Of a stretch of 64,000 nucleotides of DNA, positions 29,479 to 43,424 are shown piece after piece. Below the pieces are notes generated by a model. That model ran no database searches, was not told the origin of the DNA, and saw nothing but the letters and a program-made list of their open reading frames with translations. A program made the translations under genes and the position numbers. This stretch comes from Spirochaetota bacterium (GTDB lineage: Bacteria > Spirochaetota > UBA4802 > UBA5550), in the NCBI GenBank assembly GCA_963664815.2, contig CAXXHB010000003.1, positions 1,664,001 to 1,728,000 of the forward strand, written 5' to 3'. Within the stretch, counting starts at the first letter, position 1, and each line of letters begins with the position of its first letter.

Positions 29479-30480
29479 TCAGAAATGCAGACCACTATAT
29501 AATTCTGTTGTATATGTATTTGTAAGTATCCTGATACCTGAATAATTCGCTATACTGTCAAACACGAATGTTAATCCATAGAAAAAACTGCTTCCATTAT
29601 AACCGATTGAACTTTTAGCATTAATTCTGTAAAATCCGTCATTATCTGTTTTAGTGCCATCAAAAGTCTGATATGTGCGGAGCATATAACCGCTTCCGAA
29701 ATATGAAACAGCTGTGAAAAGATAATCTTTATAAGGATATGTTATTCCGAATCCGGCTCCTGCGGCAATACCTTTAAAGACACCGCTTTTTAAACCGGCG
29801 TTACTGCCGAAAGCAGTTTCATCTTGTTCAGGTATTAATGAAAAATCACTATTGAGTGATTGATATACCGATGATAGAATTGCTATTATAGTCCAGTCCC
29901 ATTCATTCTGCCTTTCGTTCTGCATGAAAGCAGCTCTTAGAGAAAAATCATCTGAAAACAAATAAAAAATAGAAGCGGAATATGTCCGTAAATGTATATC
30001 TGATCTTTTTATTTTTGAATCGTTGTCGGAATAACCATGTTCATTGCTGTTAGTTAGAGAGAACCCTTTGTAATTCATATAAACCAGATCTGCTCCGAAT
30101 TTCCTGCTGTATTCATTAAGTCTGATATCGGTATAATCTGTAATGGATTGCCCGTTGGCCGTGGGAATGTCAGTGATTTTGCTGACATATGAAAAGCCGT
30201 AATTATTATAATAAAGGCCTATACCGCCACTCAGCCTTAAATCAGGCATATATGTGATATGCGCATCCTCCTTTGCTTTTTCTTCACTCTTTGTTTCATT
30301 TCCTCCAGTGAATGGTTTGATGCTCACTAAAAAAACCGGGATCTGAAATGCAAATCTTACAGTTACCGGATCTTTAAAAGGGCTTACAATTATATTATCA
30401 TTACCTGCTGCATAGACCGGTATTGTAATCAAAGTGCAAACGAGGAAAACTATTGTTATTGCAAAGATTCTGATATTCAT
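29479..30480 (-). CDS. Exported beta-barrel-like protein (DUF4421-like)
   Basis: Signal peptide, YKGF..RSDI, FSLRAAFMQNERQ and a C-terminal Phe (YSGLHF). Confidence 0.65.
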   Translation of the reverse strand: MNIRIFAITIVFLVCTLITIPVYAAGNDNIIVSPFKDPVTVRFAFQIPVFLVSIKPFTGGNETKSEEKAKEDAHITYMPDLRLSGGIGLYYNNYGFSYVSKITDIPTANGQSITDYTDIRLNEYSRKFGADLVYMNYKGFSLTNSNEHGYSDNDSKIKRSDIHLRTYSASIFYLFSDDFSLRAAFMQNERQNEWDWTIIAILSSVYQSLNSDFSLIPEQDETAFGSNAGLKSGVFKGIAAGAGFGITYPYKDYLFTAVSYFGSGYMLRTYQTFDGTKTDNDGFYRINAKSSIGYNGSSFFYGLTFVFDSIANYSGIRILTNTYTTELYSGLHF

Positions 30481-30560
30481 AAAAGATTCAGGAGTTATAC
30501 TGCTGATTAAGATTCAGTTTCATTTTAATTTAATCCGTCTGATGAGGCAGGCCTTGGAGT

Positions 30561-30707
30561 TTATTCTCCCTGCAGTTGCTTCTTGATCTCTTTCAGTTTT
30601 TCAATGTCATCAGGCGAAAGAGTCTTGTCTCCAGTGATAGCTTTTGATATTAGTCCAATCAGCAAACCCTTGCCGTAGTTGTCGAGATTCAAGCTGCTTT
30701 TTTTCAT
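30561..30707 (-). CDS. Small hypothetical protein (48 aa, not in the ORF track)
   Basis: ATG 30707 to TAA 30561 gives MKKSSLNLDNYGKGLLIGLISKAITGDKTLSPDDIEKLKEIKKQLQGE. The sequence is more GC-rich than its AT-rich flanks; GGAAAG lies upstream. Confidence 0.5.
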   Translation of the reverse strand: MKKSSLNLDNYGKGLLIGLISKAITGDKTLSPDDIEKLKEIKKQLQGE

Positions 30708-31332
30708 TAAATACTTTCCATGTTTAATAATATATAAGGTTAATGTTTTATGTACAATTATTCGGGATTATTTATTAACTTTTAAATTATGTTTATATAA
30801 TCCTTTTTTTCATGGTTGAATGATAATATAATTTTTCATTAATAAAATTTAAGCAATTAATGCCGAGATATTATATTTAACCTGAGTTTTGATAAAAATA
30901 AAAAATACATTAAATTGTCAACTTCAAATTATCAGTCTGTTTTGAATATTGTAAGATAATAGCTCTGAGTTCTTTTACTTGACATTTGTATTGAAATAGA
31001 GTTAATTAATAAAAGGTCAGGTTATTGATAGAAAATTTCTTATGTTATATTAAAAAGTTCGTTTAAAAAGATGTGTCGGCTTCAAAGTTTACTGTAATAC
31101 TGTTTACAGCGGGTTACTAACAGATTAGAACTTTGTCATTGCGAATATAGAGAAGGATTTTATTTTAGAAATATGTCTTTCATTGTATTAAGCAGGTGTT
31201 CAACAAAAAGACTTTCATGGTATTTAATGTCTTTCAGTGACATTGTTTGTAGTTATTAAATCTCTTACTGATATAATCTGATTAATTCTTTAAAATTACA
31301 CTTTGCGATGAAATAAAAACAGGAGATCAGAA

Positions 31333-32253
31333 ATGACGGAAATACTATCCCAGAATGAAATTGATGGTTTGCTCCTGGCGATATCTTCCGGAGATGTTGA
31401 GTCTGACGGTTGTTCCGGTGTCAGAGAGAAGAAAAAGTTAAAAATATATGATTTCCGCAGACCGGATAAGTTCACCAAAGAACAGTTCCGGATGCTGCAG
31501 ATGATGCATGAAACATTTGCCCGATTGACAGCCTCAATGCTTGCAAATCGTCTTCGTATAATGACGACAGTTACAGTTGTATCGGTTGACCAGCTTACAT
31601 ATGAGGAGTTTACCCGCTCAATACCTGATCCGGCAGTTCTTGCAGTGTTGAGTATGGAACCATTGCCAAATCATGCTGTGATTGAAATAGATCCCGGTGT
31701 AGCTTTTGCAATTATTGAGTGTCTTCATGGCGGTGGTAATACAGAATATGCGTCAATATCACGTGAACTTACAGATATTGAACTCCTTCAGATGGAACGG
31801 ATTATTACTGCCATGATATCAAACCTGAGTTATACATGGGCCAGTGTTCTTGATTTGAAAACCGGATTATCCAGTCTGGAAACTAAACCTCATTTTGCAC
31901 AGATAGTTCCACCCGAAGATTTAACAGCACTTATTACTCTTGAGATCAATATCGGGTCAATCGCAGGTTTGATGAACATATGTTTACCATACATAACAAT
32001 TGAGCCGGTAATAGACCTCTTATCACAACAAGGGATTCAGGATTTTAACAGCAAAGCGACTGAAAAAGCAGGTATAGATACTTGCAATCACTTCTTTAAA
32101 CGCTACATAGACTATTCCGGAGCAATTCCCAACATGAAGCCTGATGATTTGAGAAAGCTGAAGACTGGAATGAAAATTGAGCTTAACACAATGGCCTCGG
32201 CAAAAAATGTTTACGAATTTGCCGGAATAAAAAAGGTGGCACACAATGTCTGA
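31333..32253 (+). CDS. fliM: Flagellar motor switch protein FliM paralogue with a degenerate C-terminal SpoA domain
   Basis: N-terminal LSQNEIDGLL CheY-binding motif, YDFRRPDKF, MHETFARL, VDQLTYEEF, ELTDIE and GLMNICLPY; AGGAG RBS. Confidence 0.85.
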   Translation: MTEILSQNEIDGLLLAISSGDVESDGCSGVREKKKLKIYDFRRPDKFTKEQFRMLQMMHETFARLTASMLANRLRIMTTVTVVSVDQLTYEEFTRSIPDPAVLAVLSMEPLPNHAVIEIDPGVAFAIIECLHGGGNTEYASISRELTDIELLQMERIITAMISNLSYTWASVLDLKTGLSSLETKPHFAQIVPPEDLTALITLEINIGSIAGLMNICLPYITIEPVIDLLSQQGIQDFNSKATEKAGIDTCNHFFKRYIDYSGAIPNMKPDDLRKLKTGMKIELNTMASAKNVYEFAGIKKVAHNV

Positions 32254-34312
32254 TGGACCGTTGAGCCAGGAAGAGATTGATGCCCTGCTTCAGGGAGCCG
32301 GCTCTGTTCTCAAATCTGAGAAAAAAACGGAAGTGAGCGCTGTATCAGAGAATGAACCTGAAGAAAAAGGGGATTTTGATGAATTTCCGTTAACTGATAA
32401 TGATACGTTTGAAGAACCGTCGGGCATGAAAAACTGTTCAAAAACTGAGGCACCGCAGGAAGCTGCATCGAGGTTGATTCATATCAGAAGTGAACAACTT
32501 TACACCGGGAAACTTACTGTAAGAGAATCATTCAGCAATAAACTGATATCTTATCTGAACGGGAATGGTAAAAAGGCTTTGAAGAGTAAATACCTGTCAA
32601 CATTTTACAATGATATTCTTGATCCTGATGAAAAGAAATTTATATCCGGAGATGATTATGGTGATGAGTATGACGGCAGTGTTATGAAAGGGATATTGAA
32701 GAGAATCAGGAACTCAATAACTGGGGTTAATAAATTGGTTCCAGATGTATCCTGCGGATATGAGTTGAATCTTGAAAAATTCAGATTCCCTGTAACTGTA
32801 AGGGTTGAAGCAGGTACCGTTGTGTATAATGAAATAATCAGGGGAGAAGACCAGGTTCCTGTTTCAGATATATCGGGAAGAAAGGCGTTACTTGTTATTG
32901 GAGATATGGAGATCGGAAGCGGGAAGATATCCGCAAAAGATGGCAAAGTGGCATTTATTGAGCTTACTGATACTGTCATGAACAGCAGATCAGGAGCTTT
33001 GCCGTTGACAGATTTGCTTCACGAATACCGCTTTAATATATCGGTTGAGGTGGGGAGAAAGAGTATCCACCCGCTTGAAGCGGAGGAGATTTATAATGGA
33101 ACAGCACTTGTTTTTGATAAATACGCGGGAGAACATCTTGATGTAATTCTTGAAGATTATGATCTGGTTATTGCAAAGGGGGAGGCATGCATTCTTGGTG
33201 AAGTGACGGCTGTACGAATTACAGAAATGGTAAATATTAACCTGCCCGGAGTTCTTAATGGGGAATATGAGAAGAAGAGAGATATCGGGCCGGAGGCTAT
33301 TGTTCCCGTACGATTCGTTTACGGAAGAAGAAAAATGACAATTAAGGAAGTTATTGGTCTTGGAGAGGGGAGTGTTTTGGAACTGGACAGAATATTCCTG
33401 GTTCCTGCCGAGCTTATGTTCGGGGATGAACCGGCAACACGGGCAGAGCTAATTGTTGTTGATGGAAAGCTTGGTGCAAGGGTTCCGGTAGCAAGATTGA
33501 AAAATCTGTATGGTAATAAGCCTGTGAAATCCGTACTGGAATCCTCCTGTGAAAGAGAAGATGTGTCGGTTGGTGAAACTACCGGGCAGGATTATACTTC
33601 TGGAATGGATGGAGCAGATAAACCCTTCAGCTTTTTCAACGAAAACAATATTGAGCATACATTATCAGTTCTTGAAAACGAACATCCTCAGACAATAGCG
33701 CTTGTTCTGTCATATCTTGAAGCTAAACATTGTGCTATGATTCTCTCGTATCTTCCACCTGAAGTCCGTATTGCTGTTACCCGGAGAATTGCATGTATGA
33801 GGGGAGTTTCTGTAACAGTGATCGAGGATTTGGAAAAAGTGCTTCGAAAAAAGCTTTCAAGGATATCATCAGATAGATATCTTTATTCCGGGGGACTTGA
33901 CCATACCATTGAAATAATTAAAAATACCGATCATGGTATGGAAAAGTCTCTTATTGAGGGTCTTGAAGAGACAGATCCACAAACAGCAGCGGAGATAAAA
34001 AATGGAATGTTTTTATTTGAAGATATTGTATTTCTTGAAGACAGATCCGTACAGAAGGTGCTTAGAGAAGTAGATACTCAGGATCTTGTAAAAGCGCTCA
34101 GGGGAGCCAGTAAGGATGTGCATGAGAAAATATTCAGAAATATGTCAAAACGTGCAGTCAGTCTTATAAAAGAGGATATGGATTTCATGGGATCGATTCT
34201 TCTGATAGATGTTCAGAATGCTCAGGAAAAAATAATAAAAATCATTGGAAAACTGAAGGATTCCGGAGAAATATTAGTTCTTCGTCCGGGGGAAGATTAT
34301 CTGGCAAAGTAA
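32246..34312 (+). CDS. FliY/FliN-FliG fusion protein (CheY-binding N-peptide, 2-3 SpoA-like domains, FliG middle and C-terminal domains)
   Basis: MSDGPLSQEEIDALL N-terminus. SpoA-like segments ISVEVGRK..IAKGE..AVRITE and VRFVYGRRKMTIKEVIGLGEGSVLELD. From aa ~459: PFSF, EHPQ, GG, MFLFEDI and NMSKRA..EDM. Confidence 0.8.
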   Translation: MSDGPLSQEEIDALLQGAGSVLKSEKKTEVSAVSENEPEEKGDFDEFPLTDNDTFEEPSGMKNCSKTEAPQEAASRLIHIRSEQLYTGKLTVRESFSNKLISYLNGNGKKALKSKYLSTFYNDILDPDEKKFISGDDYGDEYDGSVMKGILKRIRNSITGVNKLVPDVSCGYELNLEKFRFPVTVRVEAGTVVYNEIIRGEDQVPVSDISGRKALLVIGDMEIGSGKISAKDGKVAFIELTDTVMNSRSGALPLTDLLHEYRFNISVEVGRKSIHPLEAEEIYNGTALVFDKYAGEHLDVILEDYDLVIAKGEACILGEVTAVRITEMVNINLPGVLNGEYEKKRDIGPEAIVPVRFVYGRRKMTIKEVIGLGEGSVLELDRIFLVPAELMFGDEPATRAELIVVDGKLGARVPVARLKNLYGNKPVKSVLESSCEREDVSVGETTGQDYTSGMDGADKPFSFFNENNIEHTLSVLENEHPQTIALVLSYLEAKHCAMILSYLPPEVRIAVTRRIACMRGVSVTVIEDLEKVLRKKLSRISSDRYLYSGGLDHTIEIIKNTDHGMEKSLIEGLEETDPQTAAEIKNGMFLFEDIVFLEDRSVQKVLREVDTQDLVKALRGASKDVHEKIFRNMSKRAVSLIKEDMDFMGSILLIDVQNAQEKIIKIIGKLKDSGEILVLRPGEDYLAK

Positions 34313-34331
34313 TTATTAAGGAAATTTACAT

Positions 34332-34976
34332 ATGGAACTGATAGACTTTACAGGGATATACCAGACAGGCGGAAAGTTTTTAAAATTTACCGGTTATAGT
34401 GAGCTGGCTGACAAATTGACCGGTATCAGCGAGAAAACCAGGAAAGAGGGATTGCTGGCTATTGAAGATGACCTGGAATATATGGATAATATAATGATGA
34501 AAAAGCAGTTTCAGCTGGTTGTAGATGGAACCGATCCGGAGATTGTTAAAAATATAGGTTCACTGCGGCTCTGTAATCTGCTTTATACCTTGAAGGAGAT
34601 TCTTGCATGTGCAGAATTCACGCTTTTCATGGATGCTGAAATGGAATTTGAATTATATCTGGCAAGTCGTGATGCAGCTTCCAGTGCGGTTCTTATAAAA
34701 GAGATGAGAGAGCAGATACTTTTTCTCAGAAAAGGGAATGAACAGGGAATTGAACTTCCTGAAAGGTTCAGAGCTGTTATTGATACGGTAAACTCCGGTA
34801 TTGACTGTGAAATAAAAAAGAATATTATAGAAAACCACATATGTTCAATACTTAATATAAACAGAATATATAATGAGGTCATAATAGCTGGTGTATTGGG
34901 AGTTCAGGCAGGTGACAACCCCTCGGTTCTCAGGGAGAAGCTTGATGCGATAACAGGTAATATCATTCAGGCATAA
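34332..34976 (+). CDS. Soluble MotA-like protein (cytoplasmic segments only, no TM helices)
   Basis: EKTRKEGLLAIE..QLVVDGTDPE matches the MotA cytoplasmic loop. EVIIAGVLGVQAGDNP..LREKL matches the MotA C-terminal tail. No long uncharged hydrophobic segment is present. Confidence 0.72.
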   Translation: MELIDFTGIYQTGGKFLKFTGYSELADKLTGISEKTRKEGLLAIEDDLEYMDNIMMKKQFQLVVDGTDPEIVKNIGSLRLCNLLYTLKEILACAEFTLFMDAEMEFELYLASRDAASSAVLIKEMREQILFLRKGNEQGIELPERFRAVIDTVNSGIDCEIKKNIIENHICSILNINRIYNEVIIAGVLGVQAGDNPSVLREKLDAITGNIIQA

Positions 34977-34981
34977 ATTAC

Positions 34982-35533
34982 TCAATCGAACATAACGTAA
35001 CTCACGGAAGACTCAATTTTTTTCTCTATCTCTTTTCTCTTTAATTTGAGATTTTCGAATTCACTTCGTGCTTCAGAGGTTTTTATCTTCTGCATAAGGA
35101 CGTCGCCAGTGTGTGTGTAGAAAAAAATTTTTCTTGAATTATATCCTCCGAAGTTGTAATTAACTATTGGTATTTTTTCTGTAATGAGAAAATCAACAAC
35201 CATTTCGACGTTTTTCAGCCCCATGGCCAGTTCATGGCTCATGGAGGGAAGCAGCTGAGCACCGCCGAAAATCTTTGCCTTTAGCCTGTATCTGTTCGTT
35301 CCGAGTTTCATCAACTGGTTTATAAGAAGCTCCATTGCATTGATTGCGTATCTTGCATCTCCCGGAGTTGATTTGCCTGATTTCTCTTCAGGGAGTAGTA
35401 TATGATTCATTCCCCCAGTTTTGCTGTATGGCTCAAAAAGACACACAGCAACACATGGACCGAGAATTGTTGTTATAACGGCAGGCTCTGCCGAGGAATA
35501 GTACTCGCCTATATGTATATTTATATTCTTCAT
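34982..35533 (-). CDS. cheD: Chemoreceptor glutamine deamidase CheD
   Basis: TILGPCVAVC, GGMNHILLP, KIFGGA and MGLKN motifs. Confidence 0.92.
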   Translation of the reverse strand: MKNINIHIGEYYSSAEPAVITTILGPCVAVCLFEPYSKTGGMNHILLPEEKSGKSTPGDARYAINAMELLINQLMKLGTNRYRLKAKIFGGAQLLPSMSHELAMGLKNVEMVVDFLITEKIPIVNYNFGGYNSRKIFFYTHTGDVLMQKIKTSEARSEFENLKLKRKEIEKKIESSVSYVMFD

Positions 35534-35577
35534 TTCAATCTCATAAATAATATAGAAAATTGACTCATATATTAGGA

Positions 35578-35616
35578 TAACACGATTGTGTTAGTTTTTT
35601 TAGCACGACTATGTCA
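35578..35616. promoter_or_regulatory. Tandem 16-bp palindromic operator pair (cheD / response regulator divergent region)
   Basis: TAACACGATTGTGTTA (35578-35593) and TAGCACGACTATGTCA (35601-35616). Confidence 0.6.
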
Positions 35617-35679
35617 TTGACTGACAGAAAGCATATGGTAATTTAATATCAATTCTTTTTGTTTTCCTTAAGAGGTATT

Positions 35680-36360
35680 ATGGAAAAAATTGTTATTGTT
35701 GATGACCACCCGGTTATTATAAATGGCCTTCGCGTTATTCTTGAGGAAAGCGGCCGTTATACCGTCACAGGTGAAGCCTTAAACGCAGAAGAGGCTATGA
35801 TGATACTTAATAAGGTTAGTGCTGATCTGATGATAATTGATGTAGAGCTTGGATGCGGATTAAACGGTATTGAACTTGTGAAGAAAATTTGCAAAGATTA
35901 TCCCGAAATAAGGATGCTGGTTATGTCAATGGATGACGGGGCTCTATATGCCGAGAGGGCATTAAAGGCCGGCGCGAAAGGATTTATATCCAAGGTTAAT
36001 GTGGCGGATGATATTTTTACGGCGATTGAAACTGTTAAAAAAGGTCAAATATATCTCAGCAGTGAGGTCTGCAATATAATAGCAGGTAATTATTTCAGAA
36101 ACTATATTAACCCGGTTGTGGATAATGATATGGCCAGCCTTACCGACCGTGAACTTGAGGTTTTTCAGCTTATTGGAAGAGGATATAAAAGGATGGAGAT
36201 AGCAGAAAGGTTGAATATAAGTGTAAGTACATTTGAGGCCCACAGGCGTAAAATAAGGAAAAAAATGAGCATAGAGACATCCTCGGAGCTTATTAAAACA
36301 GCAATTAAACACGAAGCTGAGCGATTTCATATCCAGCCATTATCTGAACCACGGCTGTAG
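35680..36360 (+). CDS. NarL/LuxR family response regulator
   Basis: IVDDHP..IIDVEL REC domain and LTDRELEVF..IAERLNIS HTH. ATG follows GAGG. Confidence 0.93.
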   Translation: MEKIVIVDDHPVIINGLRVILEESGRYTVTGEALNAEEAMMILNKVSADLMIIDVELGCGLNGIELVKKICKDYPEIRMLVMSMDDGALYAERALKAGAKGFISKVNVADDIFTAIETVKKGQIYLSSEVCNIIAGNYFRNYINPVVDNDMASLTDRELEVFQLIGRGYKRMEIAERLNISVSTFEAHRRKIRKKMSIETSSELIKTAIKHEAERFHIQPLSEPRL

Positions 36361-36680: not shown

Positions 36681-37286
36681 ATGGCATTTACATACTTTTT
36701 CAGGGATATGCAGACCCTTGAGATGATAAGGGATTACGCAATACCAGTGCTGAGGACCAAGAGATATATAAATGTATGGGATGCAGGATGTGCCATGGGG
36801 CCTGAACCTTATTCACTTGCTATTATACTCAGGGAAAACATGGGGAACATGATTTTCAGAAATGTAAGAATATATGCCACTGATATAGACGGGAGTAATC
36901 TTTTTCAGGAGATTATAGAATCCGGGGAATACCCGAGGGAACAACTGGACAGAATTCCGTCAGATATATTCAACAGGTATTTTTCTAAAGTGGATGATGG
37001 TGAAAAATACAGGATATCGGAAGACATAATCAGATGCCTGCATTTTATAAGGCACGATCTTCTCTCACTTCATCCGGTAAAGAATGATTTCAGTATGGTT
37101 TTATGCAAGAATGTTCTGCTTCACTTTAAACATGAAGAGAGAGTTAAGGTTATAAAGATGTTTCATGAAAATCTTCTAGAAGGGGGATTCTTTGTTACTG
37201 AACAGACCCAGAAGATGCCTGAGGAACTGGATGGTTTTTTTGAACAAGTAGTATCTAATGCACAGGTGTACAGAAAGGTCGGATAA
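36681..37286 (+). CDS. cheR: CheR-type methyltransferase, catalytic domain only
   Basis: Starts MAFTYFFRD. Motifs WDAGCAMGPEPYSLA, ATDID, HDLL and CKNVLLHF. The N-terminal all-alpha domain is absent. Confidence 0.8.
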   Translation: MAFTYFFRDMQTLEMIRDYAIPVLRTKRYINVWDAGCAMGPEPYSLAIILRENMGNMIFRNVRIYATDIDGSNLFQEIIESGEYPREQLDRIPSDIFNRYFSKVDDGEKYRISEDIIRCLHFIRHDLLSLHPVKNDFSMVLCKNVLLHFKHEERVKVIKMFHENLLEGGFFVTEQTQKMPEELDGFFEQVVSNAQVYRKVG

Positions 37287-37894
37287 TGAGAGCGGATAAT
37301 GTGAAAATATATAATCTCACTGAAAACAGTAAAGTTTATACATCAAATGTTTATCTTATAACAGGAACTTGGAACAGGATTGATGATGTTAATGCACTTA
37401 TTGATGTCGGACGTGATCTTTCTATACTTGAAATGATTCTTGAAATCCCCACCGGCGTTGGTAAAAAACAGGTTGAGAAAGTAGTAATTACTCACAACCA
37501 TTACGATCACACATCAATGCTTCCAAATGTGAAAAAAGTATTTAATTCCAGGGTATGTGCTTTTTCAAATTCAATAGCTGGAGTAGATCGCATACTGAGA
37601 GACGGAGACATGATAAAACTTGGAGACAGGTTATTTGAGGTTATACACACACCTGGTCACAGTAGTGATTCAATATGTCTCTATAACATGGATGATGGTG
37701 CTCTTTTTTCTGGAGATACATCTCTTGTTATACGTAACACTGAATCATACTATGATGATGAATTTATCAGAGCTGTGGAAAAACTGTGCAGACGTGATGT
37801 GCAAATAATATATCCGGGGCATGGAGAAACTATTCGTGAAAAGTGTAATGATAAGATAAGGGAATCATTGAAAAACCTGAGGAAAAATAATTAA
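37286..37894 (+). CDS. MBL-fold metallo-hydrolase
   Basis: THNHYDH, TPGHS, FSGD and YPGHG motifs. Translationally coupled to cheR (TAATG). Confidence 0.88.
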   Translation: MRADNVKIYNLTENSKVYTSNVYLITGTWNRIDDVNALIDVGRDLSILEMILEIPTGVGKKQVEKVVITHNHYDHTSMLPNVKKVFNSRVCAFSNSIAGVDRILRDGDMIKLGDRLFEVIHTPGHSSDSICLYNMDDGALFSGDTSLVIRNTESYYDDEFIRAVEKLCRRDVQIIYPGHGETIREKCNDKIRESLKNLRKNN

Positions 37895-43055: not shown

Positions 43056-43424
43056 ATGGCAAAGAAGGTTATGGTGATTGATGATTCAAATGCTATCAGA
43101 CAGTCACTTGTTTATACGTTAAAAAGCGCCGGTTATGATGCAATCGAAGCTTCTAACGGTGCTGTAGCGCTTGATCTTATGAAACAGTGTTCAATAGGCC
43201 TTTTTATTTCAGATGTGAATATGCCTGAGATGGACGGGATTACACTGTTAAGAAAAATCAAGGAGGATTCTTCTTATAAACATACGCCGGTTATCATGCT
43301 CACAACAGAGTCATCATCTGATATGATTGAGTCGGGGAAAAAAGCGGGTGCAAAAGCGTGGATTATAAAACCTTTCCAGCCGGAACAGCTTCTCGATGCT
43401 GTTAAAAAACTTTTTGTAAACTGA
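43056..43424 (+). CDS. cheY: Single-domain response regulator CheY
   Basis: VIDDS, ISDVNMPEMDG, MLTTES and WIIKPF motifs; GGAGG RBS; upstream of STAS-cheA. Confidence 0.9.
   Translation: MAKKVMVIDDSNAIRQSLVYTLKSAGYDAIEASNGAVALDLMKQCSIGLFISDVNMPEMDGITLLRKIKEDSSYKHTPVIMLTTESSSDMIESGKKAGAKAWIIKPFQPEQLLDAVKKLFVN

Follow-up and report, generated by a model that had tools for sequence, protein, structure and literature searches.

What might three flagellar genes do when the parts that would fix their products to the membrane are missing? The question is raised by genes A, B and C, which lie on the + strand at positions 31333-34976 of a 64,000-nucleotide stretch of DNA from a Spirochaetota bacterium (the window; GenBank assembly GCA_963664815.2, contig CAXXHB010000003.1). 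The window corresponds to C3:1,664,001-1,728,000 of the 5.2-Mb genome, hereafter called G000. This trio encodes membrane-free paralogues of one protomer of the flagellar C-ring (A and B) together with the cytoplasmic, rotor-facing domain of MotA (C), and it is a conserved but rare, self-contained three-gene module. The parts belong to known families, and no prior description of the combination was found. The coordinates of the genes and of their domains are given in Table 1.

Domain composition of the three proteins

Gene A encodes a FliM paralogue, which is 49% identical to the canonical 341-residue FliM of the same genome. Pfam FliM (PF02154) matched residues 39-230 over the full model (E 3e-61), and TIGR01397 scored 233.8 bits (cut-off 219.6), but over model positions 1-239 of 320 only. 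The N-terminus carries a peptide for binding phosphorylated CheY (CheY-P), MTEILSQNEIDGLL, aligned with MTEILSQDEIDALL of the canonical protein. The C-terminal SpoA domain is cut to roughly its first half, and A gave no match to Pfam FliMN_C. By membership tests, A is therefore without a defining FliM domain, the complete SpoA. The A-type proteins of G000, of a genome of another family of the same order (G387) and of a metagenome contig (L024) share the same end point, about 35 residues before the canonical FliM C-terminus.

Gene B encodes a fusion in which a CheY-binding peptide, a disordered linker, a small helical domain, SpoA modules, a second linker, FliG_M and FliG_C follow one another. 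The peptide is kept in the L024 protein and in the database protein P0002, a B-type protein of 979 residues that still has FliG_N. The AlphaFold2 (AF2) model of whole B, made from a 4-row alignment, had a mean predicted local distance difference test (pLDDT) score of 54 and was used for the rough domain layout only. The two SpoA modules recognized by Pfam, numbered 2 and 3, matched each other in hhalign with 97.4% probability. A possible third, degenerate beta module at residues 184-243 was rejected, as its hhalign comparison with modules 2 and 3 gave only P ~0.04, which is not significant. The phosphatase-type domain of FliY (CheC/CheX) gave no Pfam match in B at E<=0.1.

The FliG part of B begins inside the family model. 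TIGR00207 scored 250.9 bits (cut-off 226.7) over model positions 110-334 of 338 only; since the match begins only at position 110, B has no FliG N domain, and in the alignment with FliG1 and FliG2 the first ~100 FliG residues are absent from B. A weak Pfam FliG_N match at B 481-560 overlaps FliG_M and was discarded as a repeat cross-match. By membership tests, B is not a FliG, as it lacks the FliF-binding N domain. Its FliG_MC portion is 55% identical to FliG1, its closest match, and the torque helix is near-identical to that of canonical FliG1. The EHPQ and RNMSKRA...EDMDFMG motifs are conserved in the alignment with FliG copies and B-type proteins, and torque-helix residues N632-A637, E643 and D644, together with the hinge FED motif, are invariant in all four B-type proteins. 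Complex prediction of B 556-688 with C, run without controls, gave scores of 0.23 and 0.21 against a mark of 0.32, which count neither for nor against an association. A different natural fusion, P0003 (636 residues), joins a full FliM, a SpoA-like stretch, FliG_M and FliG_C, and its torque-helix charges are not conserved.

Gene C encodes a soluble protein that corresponds to the cytoplasmic domain of MotA. In the alignment with the genome's own and other MotAs, transmembrane (TM) helices 1 and 2 are deleted and the TM3-TM4 segment is replaced by polar helices of similar length, while the cytoplasmic loop helix, with R37 and E45, and the C-tail (GVLGVQAGDNP) are retained. No 19-residue window of C exceeds a Kyte-Doolittle value of 1.6 (maximum 1.26), whereas the two MotAs of the genome have 23 and 29 such windows, and the six soluble MotA members tested have none. 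C matched no Pfam family, MotA_ExbB (PF01618) included. The NCBIfam MotA/MotP/PomA models matched residues 22-76 only (MotA 75-129), with 24-55 bits against cut-offs of 237-394. The fold matches MotA and PomA: the AF2 model of C reached a pLDDT of 94.9, and the top 17 Foldseek matches in the PDB were all MotA or PomA, among them 8ucs, which is described as a MotAB stator bound to FliG. Residues 27-80 and 177-205 of C align to 82-135 and 217-245 of MotA chain 8ucs_C. Matches in the ESM Atlas were unnamed clusters only (score 0.90) and serve as a lead only. By membership tests, C does not qualify as a MotA stator subunit, having no TM helices and no adjacent motB.

Soluble MotA proteins form a real family. 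An exhaustive, profile-free search with C against 1.84 billion representative proteins returned 575 matches at E<=1e-3, nine of them at E<=1e-30. About two dozen representatives can be aligned with C over its whole length, which gives a family of roughly two dozen clusters at 50% identity. In the family alignment (24 rows, C included), 22 rows have R37 and 21 have E45, with Asp in place of E45 in two more. These residues align with the rotor-contact Arg/Glu pair of MotA; in E. coli, MotA R90/E98 pair with FliG R281/D288-D289, according to the accessible text of PMC12505986. Mean consensus identity over the 24 rows is highest in the loop block (0.62) and lowest in the segment that replaces TM3-4 (0.37).

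A preliminary description of the window, made from the sequence alone, had proposed most of this composition, and the present matches agree with it. Both N-terminal LSQxEIDxLL peptides are present in A and B; the FliM middle, SpoA, FliG M and FliG C domains and the missing FliG N domain are borne out by Pfam and TIGRFAM; and the loss of all MotA TM helices with retention of the FliG-contacting part is confirmed by alignment, hydrophobicity and fold. The retention of the MotA charge positions and of the FliG torque-helix charges, also claimed there, holds across the soluble MotA family and the B-type proteins at the frequencies given above.

A complete canonical motor elsewhere in the genome

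Outside the window, G000 carries one fliF adjoining a 338-residue fliG, a second 338-residue fliG, a full-length fliM with its SpoA domain and a 361-residue fliY/N. It also carries two motAB operons, fliL, flhA, two fapA genes and four further cheA genes, which makes five cheA in the genome. MotB_plug was matched only at C3:2.46 Mb and 3.52 Mb, in both cases beside canonical motA. In the genome search, fliF, MotA_ExbB, MotB_plug, FliL and FlhA gave no match inside the window and matched only outside it, in line with the earlier statement that the window holds no motB, fliF, fliL or export genes. The separate canonical fliF-fliG, fliM-fliY and motAB set is thus complete elsewhere, and the trio is therefore an extra set.

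Two weaker matches were seen in the same genome. One is a FliG_C match (29.4 bits) at G000:C3:2339607-2339900, in a 98-residue frame with one in-frame TGA, which could represent either a fragment or a small gene of FliG_C type. The other is a 1124-residue CheA-type open reading frame (ORF) at G000:C3:3162753-3164879, in which a FliM domain was matched only weakly and under the cut-off (E 1.6e-4).

Distribution and evolution of the trio

The trio of G387 (also labelled L027) has the same order and consists of a FliM-type protein of 315 residues, a fusion of two SpoA domains with FliG_M and FliG_C of 585 residues, and a soluble MotA of 240 residues, with 4-bp overlaps. On contig L024, a FliM-type gene cut by the contig end is followed, with an 8-bp overlap, by an 852-residue SpoA-FliG_MC fusion and then by a soluble MotA. 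A partial trio order occurs on contig L023 (= G430:C229) of a metagenome-assembled genome, where an ORF ending in FliG_C is separated by a 15-bp gap from a fusion of soluble MotA with the solenoid of FapA. The B-type protein P0002 and P0156, a soluble MotA-FapA protein, are both listed on one 106,976-bp contig.

The trio was present in none of the 40 nearest relatives and in 2 of the 401 genomes of the phylum sample; within the order, 3 of 122 genomes carried it, and within the genus 0 of 7. G000 is counted wherever it gave a match. The related-locus search, made from a trimmed alignment with a single peptide pattern, yielded at least one locus per collection and is an undercount. A word-based search with whole B returned, among the matches listed, P0001-P0003 and ordinary FliY, and the same search with B 88-345 returned the query's own cluster only. 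Word searches missed known relatives (the L024 and G387 proteins) and are therefore uninformative on rarity.

In the FliG_MC tree, which used all 15 available rows, the trio copies group together beside canonical FliG1 with support of 88/90, which is not decisive, whereas the FliG2 clade stands apart (100/100); the P0003 row sits on a long branch. The trio copies also have long branches and are 47-57% identical to each other, compared with 89-99% for canonical FliG1 across the same genomes. The trio proteins share only 36-57% of their residues with their nearest orthologues, a divergence at which synonymous sites are saturated.

Further ORFs with FliG_C were found in the trio-bearing genome G387 (C46:12810-13070, 584 residues; C37:18186-18452, 125 residues) and in G430 (C42:10438-11337, 1143 residues, also with MotA-loop units; C9:14265-14525, 670 residues). 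The trio-less genomes G006 and G014 have two canonical fliG genes only.

Soluble MotA fused to FliG_C or FapA

Ten long or extended soluble-MotA relatives were scanned with Pfam. In six of them (P0166, P0169, P0170, P0172, P0178 and P0203), MotA-like units occur together with one or two FliG_C domains that score above the cut-off; in P0196, FliG_C fell below the cut-off, and P0173, which is apparently cut, had none. Both extended C-type relatives scanned, P0154 (L023:550-1650) and P0156, have a soluble MotA joined C-terminally to the start of a FapA (DUF342) beta-solenoid. Similar C-terminal extensions in P0155, P0157 and P0158 were judged by eye, without a Pfam scan.

FliG_C and FapA are the two known binders of the MotA cytoplasmic face, so these fusions support soluble MotA acting with FliG_C- or FapA-type partners. 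The support for such binding is indirect and comes from gene fusion, and the domain may work in this way. According to the accessible text of a preprint (10.64898/2026.10.14.759253), MotA is bound in Borrelia principally by the D5 solenoid of FapA, which touches all five MotA subunits, covers the MotA residues that bind FliG and acts as a clutch; the control of this clutch is left open in that text.

Hidden Markov models of the loop and tail blocks were used to count MotA units in 20 long proteins. Exactly five loop units were counted in 7 of the 20, three of which come from one 90% cluster, and the other 13 have two or three. The five-unit proteins (P0169/P0301/P0302, P0173, P0178, P0253 and P0242) consist of condensed tandem MotA-cytoplasmic units, and P0169 and P0178 add two FliG_C stretches to them. 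P0301, a cluster member of P0169, is named 'hypothetical protein [Treponema sp.]'. Five tandem units match the MotA5 stoichiometry, and each of these proteins may amount to a stator base in one chain, a pseudo-pentamer tethered to its rotor partner.

Proposed role and alternative explanations

To our knowledge, MotA has so far been known only as a membrane stator subunit. We tentatively propose that the trio acts as a CheY-P-gated soluble mimic of the rotor-stator interface, competing at the real motor or at its FapA clutch. The proposal draws on the conserved gene order, the retained contact residues, the solubility and MotA fold of C, the fusions of its relatives to FliG_C and FapA, and the presence of a canonical motor and two fapA genes. 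A and B would assemble through the retained FliM_M:FliG_M and SpoA contacts into one C-ring protomer without a membrane anchor, and the FliG_C of B would hold C through the retained charge pairs of torque helix and MotA. Binding of CheY-P to the N-terminal peptides of A and B would flip FliG_C, as in the real switch, and the grip on C would change. The MotA-like face of C might thereby be freed or captured and act as a competitive mimic at the real rotor-stator interface. Its possible targets are the FapA clutch solenoid, the motor's own FliG_C and other binders of the MotA base. The level of CheY-P would in this way tune the number of engaged stators.

Several observations weigh against this proposal. 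The trio is patchy and dispensable, as the frequencies in the order, the genus and the phylum sample indicate, and it evolves several-fold faster than the canonical copies, which could mean relaxed constraint. The B homologue of G387 has no CheY-binding peptide, and the C proteins of G000 and G387 have no FapA domain. At the position of GGXG, which we take to be the FliM loop contacting FliG_M, A of G000 reads GGGN where canonical FliM has GGLG; L024 also has GGLG, and G387 has GGNG. After the NP motif, C of G000 has Ser, whereas 15 of the 24 family members have Arg. The protein database also contains a frameshifted version of B (P0001).

Other explanations place the same parts differently. 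It seems unlikely that the trio is a free-standing cytoplasmic signalling device, in which an A:B protomer or small ring would sense CheY-P and, through the FliG_C flip, take up or let go a soluble MotA oligomer, possibly a pentamer. Relatives that carry five MotA units and FliG_C would then be single-chain versions of the same pair, and the released mimic would control the FapA clutch or a non-rotational process. Docking of A and B on the genuine C-ring, as extra or alternative protomers with a MotA-like cap that alter switching or torque from within the ring, is improbable to a similar degree. Every C-ring assembly surface is retained, the FliG_MC of B is closest to the motor's FliG1 and branches beside it, and several fliG copies are common in spirochaetes, with three in L. 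interrogans according to the accessible text of PMC11800159. However, B is without FliG_N, so that the FliF-bound position is closed to it, and the SpoA domain of A is truncated. The relatives with only MotA-like repeats and FliG_C also argue that the pair works without ring-assembly domains. Somewhat less probable still is a dedicated cytoplasmic output of the adjacent che pathway, with the CheY at 43056 feeding A and B to control a non-motor target. The CheY-binding peptides on both proteins would suit such an output, as would the position of the G000 trio, which abuts a complete che cluster (cheD, two CheR, a methyl-accepting chemotaxis protein (MCP), CheB, CheW, CheY, STAS and CheA). This adjacency is not kept in G387 or G430/L023, however, and G006, of the same genus, has the orthologous che cluster without the trio, with synteny ending at cheD. 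The convergence of cheD on C makes separate transcription units, and with five cheA genes in the genome the partner CheY need not be the one at 43056.

We consider it very unlikely that the trio is a CheY-P sink or buffer, whose peptides soak up CheY-P or present it to a phosphatase while the FliG and MotA parts are structural baggage. Each A:B pair would offer two CheY-binding peptides, and in the L024 protein and P0002 the peptide is followed by an extra insert of ~180 residues, at the position that the CheC-like domain occupies in FliY. But at the thresholds applied, Pfam gave no CheC/CheX match in B, in P0002 or in the protein of L024, the B of G387 lacks the peptide entirely, and the conserved torque helix, the MotA charges and gene C itself would be left unexplained. 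That the genes are decaying duplicates or an assembly artefact without function is hardly credible and already largely refuted. Long branches, the patchy distribution and the frameshifted database variant would fit decay. However, lineages whose copies share only 36-57% identity have all kept three intact, coupled ORFs with matching truncation points, and conservation is focused on the interface residues; together these argue against decay, and the sequence is confirmed by independent contigs. The earlier claim that the anchors were lost in a coordinated manner and not by random decay thus stands, given the same gene order in G387, L024 and partly G430/L023 and the shared truncation point of A.

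Relation to known systems

The trio uses the same families as the canonical switch (FliG, FliM, FliN/FliY) and the MotA5B2 stator, namely FliM_M, SpoA, FliG_M, FliG_C and the MotA loop and tail. It also has the same contact motifs: LSQxEIDxLL, EHPQ, the torque-helix Arg with its acidic pair and the MotA Arg/Glu pair. Unlike the canonical motor, it has no FliG_N (the FliF anchor), MotA TM helix or motB partner; its SpoA is fused to FliG_MC in one chain, the SpoA of FliM is truncated, and the genes lie outside flagellar clusters.

Soluble regulators of torque that intrude at the MotA-FliG interface include the YcgR and MotI brakes and the EpsE clutch. The trio would, in the role that we favor, likewise provide soluble proteins at this interface. 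The folds of those regulators (PilZ; glycosyltransferase) are unrelated to the trio, and they respond to c-di-GMP or biofilm state, whereas the trio consists of motor paralogues and has peptides that bind CheY-P. YcgR is discussed in the accessible text of PMC11800159. The FapA (DUF342) clutch of Borrelia burgdorferi (BB0267) and FapA of Helicobacter pylori are also cytoplasmic factors at the rotor-facing base of MotA; FapA binds MotA, whereas C is itself a MotA mimic and has no FapA domain in G000. FliG1 of Borrelia is reportedly polar. The extra FliGs of spirochaetes, such as FliG2 here and, in the accessible text of PMC11800159, those among the three fliG of L. interrogans, are additional switch copies like the trio. 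Unlike B, they are full-length, stand-alone proteins of ~340 residues, and the FliG2 clade is separate from the trio copies. The proteins with tandem MotA repeats and FliG_C (P0169 with P0301, P0170, P0172 and P0178) share the soluble MotA loop unit and FliG_C with the trio, but in a single chain. They have no FliM, SpoA or FliG_M, contain two to five condensed copies of the MotA unit and are uncharacterised.

In the literature covered, which leaves most subscription journals and supplements outside, no description was found of a soluble or truncated MotA, a SpoA (FliN/FliY)-FliG fusion, non-flagellar FliG/FliM/MotA paralogues or the trio. If the proposed role is true, a naturally soluble MotA domain, encoded together with FliG_C as its partner and with a FliM/SpoA module that senses CheY-P, would represent a new type of motor regulator, one built as a mimic. 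Stator engagement would be coupled to chemotaxis signalling, and structural biology would gain a rotor-stator interface that is membrane-free and expressible. The wider family, with its MotA-FapA fusions and its two to five MotA repeats with FliG_C, suggests repeated use of the principle in spirochaetes.

Locus structure and the neighbouring che cluster

The ORF coordinates reproduce exactly the earlier account of three tightly packed, co-oriented genes. A and B overlap by 8 bp (ATGTCTGA), B and C are 19 bp apart, and a Shine-Dalgarno-like site precedes each of the three starts; the genes are translationally coupled.

Table 1. Coordinates in the window of the trio, its domains and adjoining features.
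Feature	Positions	Strand	Remarks
AT-rich intergenic region 5' of gene A	30481-31332	+	852 bp, 28% GC; presumed trio promoter region
Gene A, FliM paralogue	31333-32253	+	306 residues
Gene B, SpoA-FliG_M-FliG_C fusion	32246-34312	+	688 residues
B residues 6-16, LSQEEIDALLQ, FliY/FliM-type CheY-P-binding peptide	32261-32293	+	TIGR01397 weak match at 6-28
B residues 92-161, four-helix domain without family match	32519-32728	+	AF2 pLDDT 70-84; kept in L024 and P0002
B residues 262-412, two SpoA (FliN-type) domains	33029-33481	+	Pfam FliMN_C, two stretches
B residues 473-542, FliG middle domain with EHPQ	33662-33871	+	Pfam FliG_M, E 1.7e-23
B residues 572-676, FliG C-terminal domain, torque helix RNMSKRAVSLIKEDMDFMG	33959-34273	+	Pfam FliG_C, E 7e-36
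A6 homopolymer inside gene B, just before FliG_C	33997-34002	+	
Gene C, soluble MotA cytoplasmic-domain protein	34332-34976	+	214 residues
cheD, converging on gene C, 5 bp after the C stop; border of the che cluster	34982-35533	-	Pfam CheD

The assembly was checked at each junction. Contigs from run X3 (a second study) and from X4 span the A/B, B/C and C/cheD junctions with 0 differences, which rules out an assembly chimera, an artefact that the preliminary description had named as one way in which it could be wrong. The database protein P0001 is identical to B up to the A6 run; from there it reads as though one A had been added, and it stops at residue 591, short of FliG_C. At this run, the X3 contigs break exactly, and X4 record 15 and X5 record 24 cross it unchanged; the variant could be a sequencing error or length variation.

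In the region 5' of gene A, 23 sigma-70 sites were counted against 17.3 +/- 4.3 in shuffles, and the promoter/terminator scan did not rise above shuffles. The Rfam scan of 30300-35800 gave no match at E<=1, and none of the three proteins matched a PADLOC family, Zorya ZorAB included, at E<=0.01. A sigma-28-like motif lies at 30843-30869 in the 28%-GC spacer, ~490 bp 5' of A, with 2 mismatches to the consensus; it is a lead only and could be chance.

The trio is not part of the neighbouring che cluster. The preliminary description had placed it at the head of a chemosensory island, which was not borne out: cheD is inverted and convergent with C, so the trio is a separate transcription unit beside the cluster. 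Beyond cheD, G000 has a LuxR-type response regulator, a CheR-like protein, a metallo-beta-lactamase (MBL)/ODP-like protein, MCP, CheR, CheB, CheW, CheY, STAS, CheA and a hybrid kinase. In G006, the orthologous che cluster has the same inverted cheD at its border (56% amino acid identity) and no trio; beyond that cheD, the G006 sequence is unrelated to that of G000 and synteny stops exactly there. The trio therefore lies where synteny breaks, next to a che cluster that also occurs in its absence. Elsewhere its surroundings differ: in G387, it lies between efflux genes (OEP, AcrB) and fatty-acid-type genes, and in L023/G430 an exo/endonuclease-phosphatase gene follows 3' of the soluble MotA, while L024 is too short to show context. 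The suggested functional link to the adjacent island is not supported by these comparisons.

Within the che cluster, positions 37286-37894 encode the metallo-beta-lactamase-fold protein, which also matched the ODP family (E 2.4e-7). We take ODP to be an oxygen-binding diiron sensor linked to chemotaxis in Treponema. The protein is kept in the orthologous cluster of G006, with 70% amino acid identity.

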